Assembly: GCA_965369835.1 (NCBI GenBank)
Contig: CBDUSE010000001.1
Coordinates: 4,393 to 68,392, forward strand
Source of the DNA: an uncultured bacterium
Lineage (GTDB): Bacteria > Auribacterota > JABMQX01 > JAFGEW01
Direction of reading: 5' to 3'
Length of the DNA stretch: 64,000 nucleotides
Part shown: positions 1 to 14,385 of the stretch, one piece after another
Numbering within the stretch: position 1 is the first letter of the stretch
Layout of the letters: the number at the start of each line of letters is the position of its first letter
Program-made: the position numbers and the translations under genes
The notes under the pieces: model-generated
Database searches by the model: none
Seen by the model: only the letters and a program-made list of their open reading frames with translations
What the model was told of the DNA's origin: nothing

Positions 1-2330
1 ACAACCGCCTCGAGGCCAAGAAAGGCCACGAGTTTCCTGAGGCAGTTGGTCCGGCGCGGTGCCCGGCCCTCGACGCGGCAGCTCTCTTCAACGTACCGCG
101 TTTGCCTGACAACGCGGGGGCTGAAGATCCAGAAACCTCGGCGTCTTCCTTTCTCGAAGTGCTCCAGGCGCCGGCTGGCATCTTCAAGTAGCCGCTTGTG
201 ATCCGCCTCTGCAGGGACTTGCACTTGCGCCGTGCCAAGCTCCTCGCGGGTCGTGGCCGTTGAGCTCAAGAGGGAATCCACGTCGCGGGCGAGGCGCTTC
301 CAGTGCTCCTGCCTTCCGACAAGCAAGTCCCTCAGGACTTCCTGCGCCAGCTCTCCCAGCGAACGCCTTGCCCGGGCGGCGTGTTCATCCAGAGCCGTGA
401 GAAAAGCCCGGGACTTCTCTAGACCTTCCACAGGGCTATCTCGAAGCACATCCAGCTTCTCGCGGACCACACTCCTCAGAGCCCGCTCTTCCGCGTCCTC
501 CGCAGCCTCGATCGCGCTCACGCTTGCAGCGAAGTCGTCTGGGTCTGCGAGTTGGAACTCGCCTGTCTCCAAGCGAAGCTCCTGGCACCAGTCCTGGGTT
601 GCCTGTGCATGCACTTCGGCAAGAAGCCTAATGTCTTCAAGGCCTAGAGGGAACGACGTGAGGTCATCGTGGAGGTGCGGGAGCCAGCCGAAGCTCTCGC
701 GCTCCTGCTCCAGCCGTCGTGCAATCTGGGCGGTGGTTCCCTGGTAGCCGCCGAGCAGTGTGCAGGAGTGCGTCTCGGCCTCGCGGGATTCGCGCAACTC
801 GCGGTCGATCTCGGCGCGCTTGTCCTCAAGCTGGTTCAACTCCTGCTCGAGCTGCTTGATCTTCTCCTGAGCCCAGTTCGGTCCCTGCCACTCGTTGTGT
901 CTTCGGAGGATGCCGTGAACCCCCTCGTCGAGAAGGCGCTGGTCGTCGCGCGTCGAGCCGAGGGCCGTAACACAGAGGTCGCGCAGATCATCCGGAAGCA
1001 GCCCCCGCAGGACGGTCAACGCCTTGGCAGTATGAGCCGTGACCAGAACGCGCTCACCGGAAGCCAACAGATGGCATATCATATTTGCTATTGTCTGGCT
1101 TTTCCCGGTCCCGGGCGGGCCTTTCACGAGCACGTACGGTTGCGCCCCGAGGCGATGGGCGATCCTGCGCTGCTCGTCGTTTGTCGGGAGAGGGAAGAGA
1201 AGGCGGTCCGCTGCTTGCCGCGTTGGATCGTAATGAGGAGGGCTGATTGTGGGATCAGATGAACCGGGCAATGACTCGCCTTCGCTCACAAACCGGTCCC
1301 ATGGTCCGGTGGTTGCAGGGGGCACATCGCCGTTGAAGCCCTTCAAGAAACCGGCGATGAGCTCCTCATAGGCGGTTGGTCGGCGCTCACGAAGCACAAC
1401 AGCCGGAGCGTACAGCACCCGAACTGTTTCATCGGCCCGATCCGCGGGACGGAGAGCTTTCTCATCCACTTCCGCGCTTGGAGTGGCCCGATTGGCTATC
1501 TCGCTCAGGATCTCACCGACCTTGGCGGTATCCCAAGCTTGGATGTCGAGTTCCTCCAGACGGTCTTCGAGGCCCGCTCCCTCGATCCGCGGCTGCTCGT
1601 GGAGCTCCAGCATGTCGAGCTCGATCCGGAAGCTCTGGAAGGAGGCTGAGGGTAGCACCGTCAGAACGCCACGCGCCGCGTCGAGCGAGATCTCAGCCGG
1701 CGCCGTCAGAAGGTGCCGCTTCACCGTTTTTCCGGTCGAGTCGCGCCACTGCAGAAGTCCGACAGCGAGGAGGAGCTCGTAGCGTTCTTCGGACTCCTCG
1801 AGGCGCCGCCGCATAAGGTCCACCTTCTCGTAAACGCGCTGAACTTCCTCCCACCTACGCAGCTCCTCCGCCCACGGCTCCCACTTGTTCACAAGATAGT
1901 CGAGCCAGGCTTCCTCTACCTCTGGATGATCGCTCAGGTGCTGCAACTCAGGAACCTTCGTAACCATCGTCACTTGTTGCTCAGGCGGGGCGTCAGGATC
2001 TGGCGCCTGTCTTTCGACTAGGAGGGTGATCTCAGGAAGAAGCTCCGGATCGTGTTGCGTCTGGTCCAAATCCTCAGGACGGACCCAATCCAGAACCATT
2101 TCGGGAACTGGCGGGCAGGTCGGCATGCGCTTCTTGCGGACCTCGAGCCAGATCTCGGGGAACTGTTCTGGATTCTCGGACAGAAGAGCAGAGCGGCACT
2201 CGCGCCGGTCCTTGGGGACGTCGGCGAACCACAGAAGCTCGTCGCCGGGCCTGTAGGAGGGGACGCGCTGGCGTCGGAGGGTGGCCGCATCCTTGAGAAA
2301 GGCGAGTAAAGAGGCCCCTTTGCCTAACAC
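1..2330 (-). CDS. Upf1-like superfamily-1 helicase, N-terminal part (partial; gene continues beyond window start). Runs off the window, so it is absent from the ORF track.
   Basis: Minus-strand frame reads without stops from a GTG at 2330 (SD GAGGAAAGG upstream) to position 1. It contains the Walker A motif VLVKGPPGTGKSQTIANMICHLLASGERVLVTAHTAKAL at about 1070-1140, typical of AAA_11/AAA_12 (Upf1/Sen1-like) helicases, preceded by a DUF4011-like N-terminal region of about 400 aa. Confidence 0.6.
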   Translation of the reverse strand, partial: MLGKGASLLAFLKDAATLRRQRVPSYRPGDELLWFADVPKDRRECRSALLSENPEQFPEIWLEVRKKRMPTCPPVPEMVLDWVRPEDLDQTQHDPELLPEITLLVERQAPDPDAPPEQQVTMVTKVPELQHLSDHPEVEEAWLDYLVNKWEPWAEELRRWEEVQRVYEKVDLMRRRLEESEERYELLLAVGLLQWRDSTGKTVKRHLLTAPAEISLDAARGVLTVLPSASFQSFRIELDMLELHEQPRIEGAGLEDRLEELDIQAWDTAKVGEILSEIANRATPSAEVDEKALRPADRADETVRVLYAPAVVLRERRPTAYEELIAGFLKGFNGDVPPATTGPWDRFVSEGESLPGSSDPTISPPHYDPTRQAADRLLFPLPTNDEQRRIAHRLGAQPYVLVKGPPGTGKSQTIANMICHLLASGERVLVTAHTAKALTVLRGLLPDDLRDLCVTALGSTRDDQRLLDEGVHGILRRHNEWQGPNWAQEKIKQLEQELNQLEDKRAEIDRELRESREAETHSCTLLGGYQGTTAQIARRLEQERESFGWLPHLHDDLTSFPLGLEDIRLLAEVHAQATQDWCQELRLETGEFQLADPDDFAASVSAIEAAEDAEERALRSVVREKLDVLRDSPVEGLEKSRAFLTALDEHAARARRSLGELAQEVLRDLLVGRQEHWKRLARDVDSLLSSTATTREELGTAQVQVPAEADHKRLLEDASRRLEHFEKGRRRGFWIFSPRVVRQTRYVEESCRVEGRAPRRTNCLRKLVAFLGLEAV

Positions 2331-7857: not shown

Positions 7858-9447
7858 CTATTGATCCTCTTTGTGGCCGGCCTCTTCCTTCAGGATGATC
7901 CAGTCGAAGCCGGCTTCCGGCGGGAACTCGACCCAGATCGTGAAGATCGTGAAGCCGTGCTCGGTAAGCACGCGACCGAGCTCGAGCAGGCGGTCGGGCG
8001 CCTCGGGTCGGTGGCGGAAGAACATGACGGAGGCGCAATCGCGGTCGTCCACGACGCGGTACATGAACGCGGGTTCACCTTGGGGGTTGGCAATCATCAG
8101 CTCGGGTGGCGGCTTGATCTTCTCGAGCTTCTCTGCGCGTGCGAGCACCTCGAACAGAACGAGCTCACCCTCAGCCTTGCCGACGTACACTTTCTTGTCG
8201 GCGTCGTGAGCATTGATGTTGCGTGCATGCTCGCTCAGGCGCTCGGACTGCCGCCGGAGCAGCACGGAGCAGGCGTGGAGCCGTCCGCTCGGGAAGCGCG
8301 TCCTGTGGTGGAACGGGAGTGCGAGGAAGCTCACGGCCGCGACCGCGCCGACGATGACGACGCGCACAGCAGTGGCTAGCCGTGGCGGCCTGAACTGCCA
8401 GATTGCGCCCGCCACGAGCATGAAGAGGGTGAAGTAGGCCGGCATGTTGTGCCGAGCGCTGTTGCCGCGGATGACCATCCAGAACAGAATGAGCGGCAGC
8501 GCCCACAGGAGCGCGAATGCGACGAGCCGGCGGCGTTTCTTGACGATCAGGACCACGAGGCCGACAAGTGCGGCGGGCACGGCCGCCACGCCGCCGCCGA
8601 TCAGCAGGGCGCGCACGTTGTAGAGCCACGCCTCACCGTCGAGGCCGATGAAGAAGTGCGACGACCAGTTTCCGACGAATCCCGCCGCCGACGCCTCACC
8701 GCGGGAGAGAAAGAGCTGCGGGAGCAGCGCGCACACGATGCCGGTGGCGAGCCCGATCAGGGCGACCCATCCGGTCCGGCGCCACATCCGGCGCCCGTCG
8801 AGGAGCACGAGGCCAAGCATCGCCCCGCCGCACAGGAGCACGTCGGCCTTGGTCAAGCCGGTGAGCACGAAGAGCAACCACGCGGGCGCGAGCCACGCGA
8901 GTGGCCGTTTCGCCGTAAGCGCCGCGTCGAAGAGCACCAAGCCCCAGAGGAAGAAAGCGTAGGCGGGCATGTGGGGCATGCCGTAGATGCTCCCTTGCCA
9001 GACGGCCGGAGTAAGCAGCGTGAGGCCGACCGCCGCGCCGGCGCCCTCCCAGGGCAGGAACCGCCTCGCCAGCAGGTAGAGCGCCCCCGCGATCGTCGCA
9101 CCCGCTACCGCGCTGAGCCAGTTCATCCACGCGGGCAGTTGCGCAGGGGTCGCAACGCCCGAGCTGATGAGCGTTCTGAGCCACAGCACGTAGAGCGGGC
9201 TTGAACGGACGCGGTAGTCGGCCCAGTCCGAGCCGCTGAGCCGGCCGGTCAGGCGCCAACGGATCGCGTCGTTGGCGAGTCGCGCTGCGTCCGATTCGCC
9301 GAACGAATGGCGCAGCACGTAAGGGGAGTGAACGGCAAAGGTGGCGAGGATCAGCGCGAGCACGATGACTCGGTCGAGCCGGTGCACGCGGCGGCACGCG
9401 GAGATCGGCGCGTGCAGGCTCGGGGCGGCGGTGTCGGCGCTCGTCAC
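7858..9447 (-). CDS. Polytopic membrane protein with GT-C-like (ArnT/PMT-type) glycosyltransferase features and a C-terminal soluble domain
   Basis: 529 aa, more than 10 hydrophobic helices in the N-terminal 400 aa and an acidic first-loop region (FGESDAARLANDAIRW). Family assignment is tentative. Confidence 0.35.
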   Translation of the reverse strand: MTSADTAAPSLHAPISACRRVHRLDRVIVLALILATFAVHSPYVLRHSFGESDAARLANDAIRWRLTGRLSGSDWADYRVRSSPLYVLWLRTLISSGVATPAQLPAWMNWLSAVAGATIAGALYLLARRFLPWEGAGAAVGLTLLTPAVWQGSIYGMPHMPAYAFFLWGLVLFDAALTAKRPLAWLAPAWLLFVLTGLTKADVLLCGGAMLGLVLLDGRRMWRRTGWVALIGLATGIVCALLPQLFLSRGEASAAGFVGNWSSHFFIGLDGEAWLYNVRALLIGGGVAAVPAALVGLVVLIVKKRRRLVAFALLWALPLILFWMVIRGNSARHNMPAYFTLFMLVAGAIWQFRPPRLATAVRVVIVGAVAAVSFLALPFHHRTRFPSGRLHACSVLLRRQSERLSEHARNINAHDADKKVYVGKAEGELVLFEVLARAEKLEKIKPPPELMIANPQGEPAFMYRVVDDRDCASVMFFRHRPEAPDRLLELGRVLTEHGFTIFTIWVEFPPEAGFDWIILKEEAGHKEDQ

Positions 9448-9557: not shown

Positions 9558-12020
9558 CTATCGCCGGGAACCGGGCCACTGCGGCCCCTTGCGGGACCGG
9601 CGGAAGAGGCTGAACCGGGTGCCGGGCGGTGGGCTCGACCTCAGTTGCTCGAAGAAGGCGTACTGGAAAGCGTAGAAAGCAAGCATCGCCTCGGCAAACC
9701 TGACCGGGTTTTCCGCGCCGTAGAGCTTGCTTGTCAGCACGTAGATGTACCAGTAGTCGGCGCTCAGCCGTGGCGCGTGCTCGGAGAGCGCCTTGATCGT
9801 CTCGACGAACTGGCGGCGCACGCGCTCGATGTCGGGCTCTCCCTCGTGCAGCTCGTGGGGCGTCACGACGCGCAGCAGCAACATGCACGAGACCTCGAGG
9901 TGCTCGACCGCTTCGCTCCATTCGTGGGCTTGGTAATGCTCGAGGGCCTGGCCGAGGTGAGCGCTCATTTCGACCAGGCAGGCTTTTTCCTGCACGGCGT
10001 CCTCGGTCCTGAAGCGGATCACGCGGGTGTACCGACCCTTCAGCTCGCGGCGGCACGCGCGCACAATCCGCTCAACCTCTTGCGCCTCGACGGCGATCTC
10101 CTTGGTGAGCACCGTGTAGAACTCACCCTCGGTACCGAGCAGGTTGCCGAGCGCGATGGCGAGCTGGCGTTTGACGATTTGATTCCTCGTCCGGCGCAGC
10201 TCGGGCAGGATATGGTGGATCGCCTGGATTTCCCCGAGCCTGGCCAGCGCCTCGACGACGGTCTCGACGGTCGCGGGGTCGTTCTCGGCGGCGAGCAACC
10301 GGAGCAGGTGCTGCGACGCCCGAGGGTCGCGGATCTCGCCGAGGGCGCGCACGATGTCTTTCTTGAGCGCCCGGTCGGTCGTCGGCAGCGTCTCGATGAG
10401 CGCCTCGACGCTGCGCTGGTGACGAATCTTTCCGAGCGCCTTGGCGGACTGCGTCTGGATTTTCGACTCGGGCGACCGCATTTTCTCGATGAGCGGCTCG
10501 ATGGCTCTGGCGTCGGAGATCTTGCCGAGCGCGGTGGCGGCTTCCTCGCGCACCTCGAGGCTCGGGTCGTCGAGTGCCTTGACGAGCTCGTCGGTGGCGA
10601 TCGAGCTGCCGGTCTCGCCGAGCGCCTTGGTGGCCTTGACGCGCCTGGGCTCGTCGGGTGATCCGGCCAGGATCTGGCAGTAGCGGACAACGCGCATCGG
10701 CACGCCGGCGACGAACTGGCGCAGGAAGGCGCCGGTCGGCGCGCCCCTGGTGTCGCGCACAATCATGAGCAGCGGCAGCACGGCCACGCGCAGGACGGCC
10801 GAGAGCAAGAACAGGAGCTTGTAGTTCGAGATCTCGACGACCAGCGAGCCGCGGAACCCGGCGGTGGCTGCAAGGAACAGGCCGCCAAGGACCGGCGCCG
10901 CCGCAGCGACGATGCCAACCACGGAGTTCAGCGCAGCGAGGTAGGTTGAGCGCTGCTGGCGCGGGGCAAGGCCGATTGAGAGCGGGATCGTTGAGACGTT
11001 GATGCCGGCGTTGACGATCCCATCGAGGAACATGAGCCAGGTCAGCATGTACGCGAAGTTGCCGCGGGTGGCGATCACGAAAGCGAGCGGCGCCAGTGGC
11101 TTGAGGTACATACAGAGCGACATGATCGGCTTCGGGCCGAAGCGGTCTACGAGGTAGCCCCAGAACTTCGACGAGACGACGGAGCCGAGGATGTTCAGCC
11201 CCGAGATCGCGGCGATCCAGATGTAGGGAAGCTGTAGCTCTCGGATGAAGAAGACGGCGATGAACGGCACCATGATCCAGCAGGCGAAGTTGAACGCTGA
11301 GATGTAGATAAGGTAACGGACGAACGTGTTTTGGCGAAACGGGGCGGCGAGCATTTTCAGAAACCGGGATGGGCGGTCCGGGGGGCCGATCCGGGGCTCG
11401 GGAATGCGGTAGTGGAGGAGGATCATCGCGACGCCGAAGACGATCGCGATCCCGAAGAGCGCGATGAAGCCGTCGAGACGCTCGCGGCCCACCGAGTCCA
11501 CCAGCAGCGAGGCGCCGACTATGGCGACGAGCATGCTGAGGTTGACGATGCCGTTCCGCCTGCCCCAGAAGGCGCCCTCGGTGCGCTGCGGCACGATCTC
11601 GGCTATCCAAGCCATCCAGACCGGTGCGCTTGCGGCGGCGCACAAGCTGTTGAGAAACACGGCGCTGAGCAGCAGGGCAAGGCGCACGTCCTTGGAGTCG
11701 CCGGGCACGACGATCGGGGTGAGCACGTAGAGGATGACGCTCGCGTACATGGCCCATGCCGCGACGAGCCACAGGCGTTTGCGTATGCCATAGCGTTCCG
11801 CTACGTAGGCCGAGAGGGCGGCCGCCGGAAGCGTGATGAGCGGGAAGGCGCCGAGAAGGCCGATCGTGACCGAGCCGGCGCCGAGCAGCAGCGCGTAGCC
11901 GGTCAGGAAGGTGCCGGTCACCAGCGCGAGCGCGGCCATGCCGAGGCCGCTGGCGACGACGCTCAGGCGCATCGCCTTCTGCGCCTCGAGCGGTGTGAGG
12001 GCGGTCGGGTGGCTTGACAT
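9558..12020 (-). CDS. MFS-type permease fused to a C-terminal cytoplasmic HEAT/PBS-lyase repeat domain
   Basis: 820 aa. The N-terminal ~430 aa have about 12 TM helices with an MFS-like layout. The C-terminal region has repeated motifs DPSLEVREEAATALGKI, SAKALGKI, VRALGEI and VVEALARLG, typical of E-Z type HEAT repeats. Confidence 0.6.
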   Translation of the reverse strand: MSSHPTALTPLEAQKAMRLSVVASGLGMAALALVTGTFLTGYALLLGAGSVTIGLLGAFPLITLPAAALSAYVAERYGIRKRLWLVAAWAMYASVILYVLTPIVVPGDSKDVRLALLLSAVFLNSLCAAASAPVWMAWIAEIVPQRTEGAFWGRRNGIVNLSMLVAIVGASLLVDSVGRERLDGFIALFGIAIVFGVAMILLHYRIPEPRIGPPDRPSRFLKMLAAPFRQNTFVRYLIYISAFNFACWIMVPFIAVFFIRELQLPYIWIAAISGLNILGSVVSSKFWGYLVDRFGPKPIMSLCMYLKPLAPLAFVIATRGNFAYMLTWLMFLDGIVNAGINVSTIPLSIGLAPRQQRSTYLAALNSVVGIVAAAAPVLGGLFLAATAGFRGSLVVEISNYKLLFLLSAVLRVAVLPLLMIVRDTRGAPTGAFLRQFVAGVPMRVVRYCQILAGSPDEPRRVKATKALGETGSSIATDELVKALDDPSLEVREEAATALGKISDARAIEPLIEKMRSPESKIQTQSAKALGKIRHQRSVEALIETLPTTDRALKKDIVRALGEIRDPRASQHLLRLLAAENDPATVETVVEALARLGEIQAIHHILPELRRTRNQIVKRQLAIALGNLLGTEGEFYTVLTKEIAVEAQEVERIVRACRRELKGRYTRVIRFRTEDAVQEKACLVEMSAHLGQALEHYQAHEWSEAVEHLEVSCMLLLRVVTPHELHEGEPDIERVRRQFVETIKALSEHAPRLSADYWYIYVLTSKLYGAENPVRFAEAMLAFYAFQYAFFEQLRSSPPPGTRFSLFRRSRKGPQWPGSRR

Positions 12021-12180
12021 CGTTGGGAGGCTCGGGTCCCCTGCTTCGGCGGAATGTCAGTTCGCAACGAGGGAGTGCGTCACGTGCTGCCCCGCCGGGC
12101 CTTGTCTCATCTCATGACATGAGGACAGGCCGCCACCCGTACCAGGCAGCGGCCCGCGGATAAGCGCGTCTCTACTGTTC

Positions 12181-12861
12181 CTAGAAGGTGGTCACCCAGT
12201 TGAGGCGAATGGTGATCGTGTCTTCGGCGCCGTCCACCGTGGTCCACGTGTACCAGCTCTCGAGCACGAAGTGCAGCGGCAGCCCGTACTCGAAGCCCGC
12301 GCTCACGAGCCACTCGTCCCCGTCGTCGGTCTGGAGCACGTCGAGCCCGACGGTGGCGGGCAGCTCGAGGAAGTCGAAGCTGGTGTCCACGCCGGCGAAG
12401 AAAGCCTCGTCCTCGTCTTGGAAGCTGTAGCCGAGGTGGCCGCGCACGGGGCCGAAGTCGTGCATGGCAACGAGATAGGGATCAATGTTGCCGTTCTTGT
12501 CCTCGTCGTCGGTCACGTTCTGGATGCCGAAGCCGACGTTCGGGAGCCCTTCGCCGAGTGGGTAAACGAGCTTGCCGAAGAAGCGGATGTCGCCCTGGTC
12601 CTCGTCCGTCGGGCCGAGCATGCCGTAGATGCCGACCTCGGCGTAGTCGAGGATGCCGACGTTGACGACGCCCCACCAGTCGGGCTCCTCGCCTTTGCCG
12701 GTGGTGACCCACGTCGAGATCTCGAAGCTCCGCCACGCCAGGACCTCGGCGATCGGTATGTCGTTCAGATTGGTCCCGGGGTTGCCGGGCGCGACCGTCC
12801 ACGCGAGCGCCACGCTCAGGCAGACAGCGACCAGCACCGGGTTGCGAATCGTTCGAGCCAT
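12181..12861 (-). CDS. Small secreted outer-membrane beta-barrel protein
   Basis: Signal peptide MARTIRNPVLVAVCLSVALAWTVAPG, alternating amphipathic strands, Asp/Gly-rich loops and a C-terminal ...NWVTTF ending in Phe. Confidence 0.45.
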   Translation of the reverse strand: MARTIRNPVLVAVCLSVALAWTVAPGNPGTNLNDIPIAEVLAWRSFEISTWVTTGKGEEPDWWGVVNVGILDYAEVGIYGMLGPTDEDQGDIRFFGKLVYPLGEGLPNVGFGIQNVTDDEDKNGNIDPYLVAMHDFGPVRGHLGYSFQDEDEAFFAGVDTSFDFLELPATVGLDVLQTDDGDEWLVSAGFEYGLPLHFVLESWYTWTTVDGAEDTITIRLNWVTTF

Positions 12862-13181
12862 TCCTTACCTCCCTTCGCAGCGGCGGTTCCATACGTTTGT
12901 TCGGGCCGGCACGACCCGATTTCGCAGCGAAAGTAGGTGACCGGCCTGCCCCTGTCAAGCGCGTTTTAGCGAGGAAGGGCGGTGTCCGAGGCTTTGTCCG
13001 CTTCTGACTTGAGCCACGTAATGGACGGCGTTCATGGTTGTCAGGTTTCCAGTGCCGTTCCGTGTAGCGCCGGCATCTTGCCGGCTGTCCGGTGGGCATC
13101 TTGCCCACCGAGGTGATCGGAGCGGCCGGGTACCGCGACGGCGTCCTCAAAGCGATCATCAAGCCCTGAATCCTCCGCATC

Positions 13182-13197
13182 TGGCAACGTCCTTGCT
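13182..13197 (+). promoter_or_regulatory. Sigma54 (-24/-12) promoter TGGCAA-N5-TTGCT
   Basis: GG and GC elements are exactly 10 nt apart, about 100 nt upstream of the PAS-HisKA gene. Confidence 0.5.
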
Positions 13198-13297
13198 GCG
13201 AGACTCGCCCGCGGGCTCTCTGCCGGGCGCACTTCTCTGCGTTCTCGACGAGGGAGCGCCTCGGAGGCCCGGAGCAGGCAACGAAGACGGTGTGGTC

Positions 13298-13996
13298 ATG
13301 GCCATCATGCGGCGTTGGGAAAACCACGAGCAAGACCTGACCAAGTCAGCCCCCGGGCCCGATGCGGAGGCAAAACGCCTGGCCGAGCTCGAGGAAACCG
13401 CGAGGCGTTATCGCGAGCTCAAAAGGGCCATAGGCGACATGATGTTTGTCGTGGACGGCAGGGGACGCTTCCTCGACGTGAACGAGCGCTTCACGCGGCG
13501 CCTTGGGTACGGCGCATCCGAGCTCTTTGAGATGAAGCTCTACGAGGTGGTCGAGGACGAGGCTGAGGATCCCCGCCAGAGGATGATGCCGTTCTTCGCG
13601 CGCAGCGGCGGTCGCCAGACGTTGCGGGCCAAGAACGGCGAGCGAATGCACGTCCTTGTCAGCTCCGTGGGGCGCTACGACGAAGTGGGACAGTTCGCGG
13701 GGGCACTGGTGGTGTGCCGCGACGTTTCGGACGACAAGGGGAACGCCGAAGCGATCGTCGAGGCGGCCCAGGAGATGAACCAGCCGCTCTCGGGGATCTA
13801 CGGGTACTCGGAGCTGCTGAAAGGCAGCGTCGGCCCGCGTGATCCGGCGTATCGGTACGCGAGAAAGATCTACGAGCAGAGTGAACGGCTTGCCTCGCTT
13901 GTCAAGCGGATCAAGGCCGAGCAGGGCGTGCCTCCCAGCGGGCTTGCGTCAGGCAAGCAGCCCAACAAGCGGGAGAAAGAGGAGGACCATCCATGA
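13298..13996 (+). CDS. PAS domain plus HisKA (dimerisation/phosphoacceptor) protein lacking an HATPase domain
   Basis: Start chosen at MAIMRRWENHEQ. A PAS-like segment is followed by the H-box EMNQPLSGIYGYSELL. The ORF ends about 60 aa after the H-box with no N/G1/G2 boxes. Confidence 0.55.
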   Translation: MAIMRRWENHEQDLTKSAPGPDAEAKRLAELEETARRYRELKRAIGDMMFVVDGRGRFLDVNERFTRRLGYGASELFEMKLYEVVEDEAEDPRQRMMPFFARSGGRQTLRAKNGERMHVLVSSVGRYDEVGQFAGALVVCRDVSDDKGNAEAIVEAAQEMNQPLSGIYGYSELLKGSVGPRDPAYRYARKIYEQSERLASLVKRIKAEQGVPPSGLASGKQPNKREKEEDHP

Positions 13997-14385
13997 GTGG
14001 GCGCATCAGGGTGCTAGTGGTTGATGATGAGAAGATCATCCGTGAGATCATCGAGGACATCCTCGCTTGCGAGGGGGACGACGTGGAAGTGGTGGGAGTC
14101 GGCACGTGCGACGAAGCGCTGCAGCAGGTTCGGGAGCAGGAGTTCGATGTGATCTTCCTCGACGTGTGCATGGACGAATGCGACGGCGTCGAGCTGCTTC
14201 GCCGGATCAAGGAGTTTAGGCCGGACCCCCACATCTATATGATCACCGGCTATCAAGTGGATGACCAGATCCGGACCGCCCTCGCCGAGGGTGCCGCCGG
14301 GGCAATTCACAAGCCTTTCAAGGTCAGGGAGATTCTCGCGGTCCTGCCCGGAGCGTCCTCGGAGCCTGCGCCGCTCTCAGAATGA
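13993..14385 (+). CDS. Single-domain CheY-like response regulator receiver
   Basis: 130 aa. Shows VLVVDDE, the phospho-acceptor D in FLDVCMDECDG, and the K box (HKPF). The ATGA start overlaps the upstream stop. Confidence 0.8.
   Translation: MSGRIRVLVVDDEKIIREIIEDILACEGDDVEVVGVGTCDEALQQVREQEFDVIFLDVCMDECDGVELLRRIKEFRPDPHIYMITGYQVDDQIRTALAEGAAGAIHKPFKVREILAVLPGASSEPAPLSE

Follow-up and report, generated by a model that had tools for sequence, protein, structure and literature searches.

A family of MFS transporters carrying a cytoplasmic HEAT-repeat array and a helical C-terminal domain

The DNA analysed here (the window) is a stretch of 64,000 nucleotides from an uncultured bacterium of the Auribacterota (assembly GCA_965369835.1, contig CBDUSE010000001.1, positions 4,393 to 68,392 of the forward strand). 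On the reverse strand of the window lies a gene for an 820-aa protein, which a sequence-only reading of this DNA, made by a model, had described as a permease of the major facilitator superfamily (MFS) fused to a large cytoplasmic HEAT-repeat domain. The gene, referred to below as the MFS–HEAT gene, and the parts of its product from the N- to the C-terminus are as follows.

9558–12020, minus strand: the whole MFS–HEAT fusion gene, 820 aa, with its stop codon at 9558–9560
10746–12020, minus strand: MFS_1 domain of 12 transmembrane (TM) helices, residues 1–425, both termini inside (from Pfam, hydropathy, AlphaFold2, Foldseek and column conservation)
10701–10745, minus strand: conserved linker leading from TM12 to the HEAT array, residues 426–440, with a short helix at 429–437 (from AlphaFold2)
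10137–10700, minus strand: six HEAT repeats of the PBS-lyase type, residues 441–628, about 31 aa each, cytoplasmic (from Pfam, PDB matches and AlphaFold2)
9636–10136, minus strand: family-specific, all-helical C-terminal domain, residues 629–795, starting with G629-x4-F634-Y635
9561–9635, minus strand: Pro/Arg-rich tail, residues 796–820, sequence SPPPGTRFSLFRRSRKGPQWPGSRR, predicted to be disordered (predicted local distance difference test score, pLDDT, below 50 at residues 802–820)

In the list of open reading frames (ORFs) the gene is one uninterrupted frame from an ATG start, with no internal stop. An identical protein (P0001) is present in a public collection, and the orthologues at 68–75% identity are equal in length. 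Among the Pfam families, MFS_1, HEAT_2 and HEAT_PBS matched the 820-aa protein significantly, and no family of another kind did. The full-length AlphaFold2 model, which was built on 16 family sequences, has a mean pLDDT of 86.2 and a predicted TM-score (pTM) of 0.72; from the N- to the C-terminus it consists of 12 TM helices, the linker helix at 429–437, 12 helices over residues 441–628, a helical domain at 633–795 and a disordered tail. Two genes, or a frameshift, in place of a true fusion are ruled out, as dozens of independent clusters match the full-length architecture in a single stretch and the sequence of the MFS/HEAT junction (GAPTGAFLRQFVAGNPFR) is conserved. The MFS–HEAT gene is thus confirmed as a single gene for a 12-TM transporter with a cytoplasmic HEAT domain. 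The sequence-only reading had named two ways in which it could fail, an N-terminus of another kind and a split gene, and neither was found; Pfam architecture and AlphaFold model both agree with the MFS and HEAT fusion that it had described.

The MFS_1 match (PF07690) scored 112.9 bits against a gathering score of 33.4, in two stretches over residues 31–315 and beyond. A hydropathy scan with a 19-residue span placed 12 hydrophobic segments within residues 21–421 and detected none beyond residue 440, in line with the 12 helices of the model and with the 12-TM, MFS-like N-terminus of the sequence-only reading. With the hydrophobic segments taken as TM cores, 24 Lys and Arg residues fall in the loops predicted to be cytoplasmic and 6 in the others, which indicates that both termini, and with them the HEAT domain, are cytoplasmic. 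In a Foldseek comparison with the PDB, the matches to the N-terminal half were VMAT2 (TM-score 0.77), VMAT1, NupG/YegT, OxlT, SPNS2 and sialin, all at 13–18% identity, and no match listed spanned the MFS and HEAT parts together. Loop 8–9 (residues 287–298, WGYLVDRFGPKP) resembles motif A, and loop 2–3 (AERYGIRKR) matches that motif (G-x-x-x-D-R/K-x-G-R/K-R/K) in part. The Pfam score, the 12 TM helices in two six-helix bundles with cytoplasmic termini and the motif A-like loop are all features of MFS membership. Because the motif A-like loops are conserved, we infer that the MFS half cycles as a normal alternating-access solute carrier. Secondary similarity to MFS_2 and LacY-type carriers, and carbohydrate genes near several family members, give a weak hint that the solute may be small and organic.

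The HEAT region matched HEAT_2 (PF13646) with 91.4 bits (cut-off 27.7) and HEAT_PBS (PF03130) with 64.9 bits (cut-off 20.9), and the HEAT family was also matched. In a sequence search of the PDB its best matches were the designed alphaRep proteins (E 3e-76), and Foldseek likewise pointed to alphaRep and PBS-type HEAT structures. The six helix pairs in the model, taken with the Pfam matches and the loop charge count, bear out an earlier estimate of about six cytoplasmic PBS-type repeats. For residues 631–820 no Pfam family rose above noise, even at E ≤ 10. Modelled alone, residues 596–820 fold into a helical bundle with a pLDDT of 82.5, so that the further helical C-terminal domain lacking a database match, which had been proposed from the letters, also stands, with its AlphaFold2 helices at 633–795.

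How widespread this architecture is was estimated by several searches. A word-indexed homologue search returned 19 clusters of the same architecture, seven of them orthologues at 68–75% identity and the others 25–33% identical; alignment-based repeats of the word-indexed search added no full-length members. An exhaustive profile hidden Markov model search was run over 1.84 billion cluster representatives (clusters at 50% identity). Among its best 150 matches there were about 94 proteins of 600–1000 aa, the others being giant HEAT-repeat proteins, and most of the 94 or so were aligned, in one or two stretches, from about profile position 5 to past position 700. The resulting family size is a lower bound, the weakest of these 150 matches still scoring 523 bits. 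Since the window protein was among the sequences that built the profile, the independent evidence for the family consists of the roughly 90 other clusters. As a side observation, the fast word-indexed search may undercount repeat-containing proteins several-fold (19 clusters against more than 90 in the best 150 matches).

Sub-profiles made for the three parts detected the MFS domain (223–624 bits) and the HEAT array in all 107 fusion-length sequences, and the C-terminal domain in 70 of the 107. A Pfam scan of 60 diverse members found MFS_1, HEAT_2 and HEAT_PBS in every one, together with MFS_1_like in 21, MFS_2 in 17 and LacY_symp in 5. Across 100 members, conservation was strongest at W138 (100%), P144 (99%), G295 (96%), K/R297 (96%) and D292 (93%). 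These positions belong to two family signatures, W-x-x-D-L-V-P-x3-R-G-x-F-F-G-R-R after TM4, where W138 and P144 lie, and WG-x-L-x-D-[RK]-[FY]-G-x-[KR]-P in loop 8–9; a third, G629-x4-F634-Y635, marks the start of the C-terminal domain. The window protein matches the full-length family profile in a single stretch and has W138 and P144, the WG-x-L-x-D-[RK]-[FY]-G part of the loop 8–9 signature and G629, F634 and Y635. Where database entries are named, they are labelled ‘MFS transporter’ or ‘MFS family permease’. The named sources are metagenome-assembled genomes (MAGs) of Verrucomicrobiota and one Spirochaetia MAG. Many of the metagenomic loci also carry DUF1559/N_methyl and DUF1501 genes, which we take to be typical of Planctomycetota. 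Within the open-access literature, no description was found of an MFS_1–HEAT family, nor of a cyclic di-AMP (c-di-AMP) receptor linked to a HEAT-bearing transporter. The fusion of MFS domain, HEAT array and helical bundle therefore defines a large, conserved family that is visible in databases and unstudied, and because the architecture is kept across it, the fusion is neither rare nor an assembly artefact.

The genes around family members were surveyed in 77 metagenomic loci fetched with a family motif, together with the loci collected earlier and the window, which fell into 27 groups at 80% identity. All neighbouring ORFs were clustered, and a Pfam census was taken on 109 of them from non-redundant loci. 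In five groups (L018/L033, L019, L020/L021, L023/L024 and L068) a 109-aa gene immediately precedes the family gene on the same strand, with a gap of 51–121 nt or, in L068, an overlap of 4 nt. Its product matches Pfam CdAMP_rec (PF06153) over its full length at 63–110 bits (cut-off 27). CdAMP_rec is the DarA/PstA c-di-AMP receptor of the PII superfamily, and the 109-aa sequences keep a stretch, STGGFL-x-x-GN-x-T, which we take to be that of Bacillus subtilis DarA. The genes found, all directly upstream of the family gene, are listed by locus.

L018, 5553–5882, plus strand: DarA/PstA-type gene
L019, 5558–5905, plus strand: DarA/PstA-type gene
L020, 1250–1579, plus strand: DarA/PstA-type gene
L023, 5597–5926, plus strand: DarA/PstA-type gene
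L024, 2640–2969, plus strand: DarA/PstA-type gene
L033, about 1952–2281, plus strand: DarA/PstA-type gene (tblastn match 1952–2218)
L068, 245–574, plus strand: DarA/PstA-type gene

A DarA-type gene is likewise present in L021, where it runs off the end of the locus. In a neighbour-joining tree the four receptor-linked groups with a full-length transporter gene form one clade together with L016, which is without the receptor gene; L068 was left out of this placement, as it holds only part of its transporter gene. The clade is 44–55% identical internally and separate from that of the window, to whose protein it is 30–34% identical. Five of the six lineages of this sister clade have the receptor gene directly upstream, and the receptor and the transporter are the sole gene pair common to its sub-lineages.

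Other signalling and metabolic genes adjoin the family gene in single or related lineages. A gene for a 709-aa methyl-accepting chemotaxis protein (MCP) runs 4 nt into the start of the transporter gene (L088:1875–6508), and in another locus (L089:3664–8438) a DUF6614 gene (110 aa) is followed after 4 nt by the MFS–HEAT gene and this, after 16 nt, by a dCache-HAMP-guanylate-cyclase gene. In two related lineages (L007:5103–7004 and L087:2034–3950) a DUF4015 (glycoside-hydrolase-like) gene stands directly upstream, overlapping the MFS–HEAT gene by 4 nt in L007; a gene for a LiaF-like membrane protein precedes the DUF4015 gene in both. Near several members there are response regulators, and near several there are sugar-metabolism genes (ROK, SIS, GFO_IDH_MocA, PfkB, AP_endonuc_2 and melibiase). 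A small gene with a PurA domain (PF04845, ssDNA/RNA-binding) is convergent with the 3′ end of the MFS–HEAT gene in two further related lineages (L002:4334–4651 and L006:10508–10765, both minus strand), lying 39 nt downstream in L002, from a Verrucomicrobiota MAG, and overlapping the gene end by 4 nt in L006.

The surroundings of the MFS–HEAT gene in the window itself comprise the following features.

7858–9447, minus strand: gene for a membrane protein of 529 aa with several membrane passes and a PMT_2 (GT-C glycosyltransferase) match below threshold, between the MFS–HEAT and AI-2E transporter genes
12111–12123, no strand assigned: palindrome CTCATG-A-CATGAG (CTCATGACATGAG, 6+1+6), adjoining the hairpin on its 3′ side as read along the gene strand
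12125–12157, minus strand: 15-bp, G+C-rich RNA hairpin, terminator-like but without a U-tract, just past the stop of the upstream gene
12181–12861, minus strand: gene for a 226-aa secreted protein, the same-strand upstream neighbour, with a signal-peptide-like N-terminus and the C-terminal sequence WVTTF
13034–13996, plus strand: PAS + HisKA gene, about 1 kb upstream of the MFS–HEAT gene on the opposite strand
13993–14385, plus strand: stand-alone receiver-domain gene, its start overlapped by 4 nt by the PAS-HisKA gene

The clade of the window consists of four groups at 68–75% identity (the window, L001/L010, L004/L005/L012 and L011/L014). Its gene order is kept: the response regulator and PAS-HisKA genes run one way, the 226-aa gene and the MFS–HEAT gene diverge from them, and the AI-2E transporter gene is convergent with the latter. 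The 226-aa gene is directly upstream in L001, L004 and L005 (73–81% identity), and the L011 spacer begins with the end of the same gene. By tblastn it was not found in L002 or L006, and it does not recur in the neighbour clusters of the more distant relatives. Its product, which has about 12 alternating β-strand-like segments and a C-terminal Phe, gave no Pfam or NCBIfam match and no PDB match below E 0.7; from these features it is probably a small outer-membrane β-barrel of an undescribed family. The PMT_2-like gene was found in the window only, the AI-2E transporter gene following directly in L001 and L004. Its absence from the orthologous loci led to its rejection as a functional partner and suggests a lineage-specific insertion. 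No HATPase_c domain was detectable in the PAS + HisKA protein. The orthologous loci keep the PAS-HisKA/receiver pair, with a still shorter kinase-like protein (208–229 aa in L004 and L005).

These data can be read in several ways. We favour, with moderate confidence, an inner-membrane MFS carrier that is regulated through protein docking on its cytoplasmic HEAT and helical module. The MFS half would cycle as a solute carrier in the inner membrane, while the HEAT array and the helical domain would provide the surface on which a cytoplasmic regulator or signalling protein docks. Once docked, that protein would switch or report transport, much as AmtB or SbtA is plugged by a protein of the PII family. 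For the sister clade, the likely docking partner would be the DarA/PstA-type c-di-AMP receptor encoded immediately upstream. This proposal draws on the general role of HEAT solenoids and on the tight links to signalling genes, above all to the PII-like c-di-AMP receptor, as well as on two precedents, PII genes beside transporter genes and the cyclic-nucleotide-binding domain (cNBD) found with certain nucleotide transporter–HEAT fusions. A more specific version, in which the module of the whole family docks second-messenger receptors (DarA/PstA in the sister clade) and the window protein does likewise with a partner encoded elsewhere in the genome, draws on the sister clade and is, in our estimate, rather unlikely.

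Several observations count against docking. The C-terminal bundle has almost no invariant residues and may for that reason be structural only. At some conserved positions (E148 for R, Y92 for R and A67 for Q) the window clade differs from the family consensus, and its conserved gene order is too recent to be informative. By tblastn (E < 1e-3) there is no DarA homologue in the 64-kb window, and no DarA-type gene adjoins the family gene in the four groups of the window clade. Furthermore, the census of 109 neighbouring ORFs revealed no neighbour conserved family-wide, which makes a single universal partner unlikely. For the window gene, the transceptor or scaffold role that the sequence-only reading had put forward stays a hypothesis; it receives indirect support from those relatives whose genes stand beside c-di-AMP receptor, MCP and dCache-HAMP-cyclase genes.

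The same links could be explained if the MFS half mainly sensed its solute, with or without transport, and the HEAT and helical module relayed its state to chemoreceptors, nucleotide cyclases, two-component systems or other signalling proteins. The 4-nt overlap with the MCP gene, the 16-nt gap to the cyclase gene, the response regulators near several members, and the PAS-HisKA and response-regulator genes, which both the window and its orthologues have about 1 kb upstream on the other strand, would all fit such a sensor. However, response regulators are common chance neighbours, the MCP and cyclase links each occur in one lineage, the conserved motif A-like loops favour a cycling carrier, and no output domain is fused to the protein, so a sensor is in our view a doubtful account of the family. 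We consider it quite improbable that the solenoid is instead a membrane anchor or metabolon scaffold, which keeps a cytoplasmic enzyme at the transporter so that imported substrate passes straight to metabolism. The DUF4015 gene directly before or overlapping the transporter gene in two related lineages, and the sugar-metabolism genes near several members, are what such a scaffold would predict, but no enzyme family recurs family-wide (the most frequent reached 3 of the 109 neighbour ORFs), no such enzyme gene is adjacent in the window, and carbohydrate genes are abundant in genomes of the Planctomycetes–Verrucomicrobia–Chlamydiae (PVC) group regardless.

A different kind of control, by a dedicated repressor acting at the palindrome in the spacer upstream, had been proposed from the letters. 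The perfect 6+1+6 repeat is indeed present at 12111–12123, 91 nt before the start codon. However, the 64-kb window holds 35 perfect 6-1-6 inverted repeats, and 39% of shuffles of the 160-nt spacer contain an inverted repeat with 6-bp arms (spacer 0–10). The palindrome was not found in any of 86 loci examined, including the 68–75% identical orthologous loci, and there is no adjacent regulator gene with a DNA-binding domain. A consensus scan of the spacer gave neither a σ70-like promoter nor a canonical terminator. Furthermore, the repeat abuts the terminator-like hairpin: the 81 nt of 12085–12165 on the minus strand fold with −42.6 kcal/mol (z −2.6, none of 200 shuffles being as stable), and a hairpin occurs at the equivalent place in L004, where a T-rich stretch follows it, and in L011. 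Being statistically ordinary, unconserved and next to that hairpin, the palindrome was rejected as an operator, a role we regard as very improbable; it is treated as incidental, and the hairpin as belonging to the preceding gene. Rfam gave no family in the window at gathering thresholds and none at E ≤ 1 within 11900–13200, which argues against a c-di-AMP or other riboswitch upstream. In a 75%-identical orthologous locus (L001:7410–7933, also in L010) the 226-aa gene and the transporter gene stand further apart, with a spacer of about 630 nt that is taken up by tandem repeats of 19 and 21 bp (GCAACGGCCACGCCGACGAAG, 5.5 copies, 97% matches).

A role of the HEAT domain as an enzyme module, whether PBS-lyase-like or cofactor-handling (of the CpcE/F, NblB or deoxyhypusine-hydroxylase kind), is scarcely credible, and a phycobilin-lyase function was rejected: besides distant PDB sequence matches to phycocyanobilin lyase and deoxyhypusine hydroxylase, it has in its favour weak NCBIfam matches to CpcE (62 bits), NblB (48.8) and CpcF (23.5), but these lie far below the equivalog cut-offs of 330, 300 and 220 bits, as do the generic MFS models of NCBIfam below theirs, the likeness is that of a generic repeat consensus with designed consensus alphaRep proteins as best PDB matches, and there are no phycobiliprotein genes near the MFS–HEAT gene.

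For the window gene the gain is modest, namely a well-supported annotation as a regulated MFS carrier and the removal of the palindrome as a lead. If docking by the receptor holds for the sister clade, its proteins would be solute carriers gated by c-di-AMP and would form the first class of candidate targets of DarA-type receptors. A 2023 review calls the role of DarA ‘enigmatic’, lists what it does as one of the questions still open in c-di-AMP research, and records that its interaction partner has escaped identification in Firmicutes despite extensive efforts (PMC10636490); because of this, the operon of a darA-type gene and a transporter gene offers a concrete pair for testing.

Among known systems, generic MFS_1 carriers (VMAT1/2, NupG/YegT, OxlT, SPNS2 and sialin) share with the window protein the two six-helix halves, the motif A-like loops and a fold similarity of up to TM-score 0.77. 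Sequence identity to the solved carriers is only 13–18%, so no substrate can be transferred from them. With the PBS-lyase HEAT proteins (CpcE/CpcF and NblB) and with alphaRep it has the 31-residue repeat consensus in common; unlike in CpcE/CpcF and NblB, the repeats are here tethered to a membrane transporter.

Where a PII-family gene lies beside a transporter gene, as in glnK-amtB and sbtA-sbtB, it encodes the regulator of that transporter. The sister clade resembles GlnK–AmtB and SbtB–SbtA in that a PII-like gene directly adjoins the transporter gene on the same strand, a likeness confined to this clade, and differs from AmtB and SbtA in its HEAT domain, which those two lack. PII-family proteins are established regulators of transporters (PMC10636490). 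As an adjacent PII-like gene is missing, the window protein is not classed as a PII-regulated transporter; binding of a PII-like protein to it would be a matter of analogy.

The closest parallel in architecture is provided by the nucleotide transporter (NTT, or TLC) fusions, NTT–HEAT and NTT–HEAT–cNBD, in which the carrier bears a C-terminal HEAT domain, an architecture kept widely among bacteria but uncharacterised in function (Major, Embley & Williams 2017, Genome Biol Evol, PMC5381601). In part of that clade a cyclic-nucleotide-binding domain follows or is fused (PMC5381601). The TLC domain (PF03219) that defines these proteins gave no match on residues 1–432 at E ≤ 10 and was found in none of 60 family members at E ≤ 1e-3, and membership of the NTT–HEAT clade was therefore rejected. 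A cNMP_binding domain was found neither in the window protein, nor in the 60 family members, nor among the 25 most frequent neighbour Pfam families. The proteins described here differ from NTT–HEAT in having an MFS_1-type carrier and, following the HEAT array, an additional helical bundle of about 165 aa. What the two have in common is a 12-TM carrier of the MFS clan with a C-terminal PBS-type HEAT_2/HEAT domain, and a genetic coupling to a cyclic-nucleotide sensor, which is the cNBD there and, in some clades here, a c-di-AMP receptor or a nucleotide cyclase. Transporter–HEAT fusions are thus widespread, none has an assigned function, and the NTT/TLC type is the sole one described in print; to it we add a second large family, of the MFS_1 type, with an extra conserved helical domain and with one clade in which the transporter gene stands in an operon with that of a DarA-type c-di-AMP receptor.

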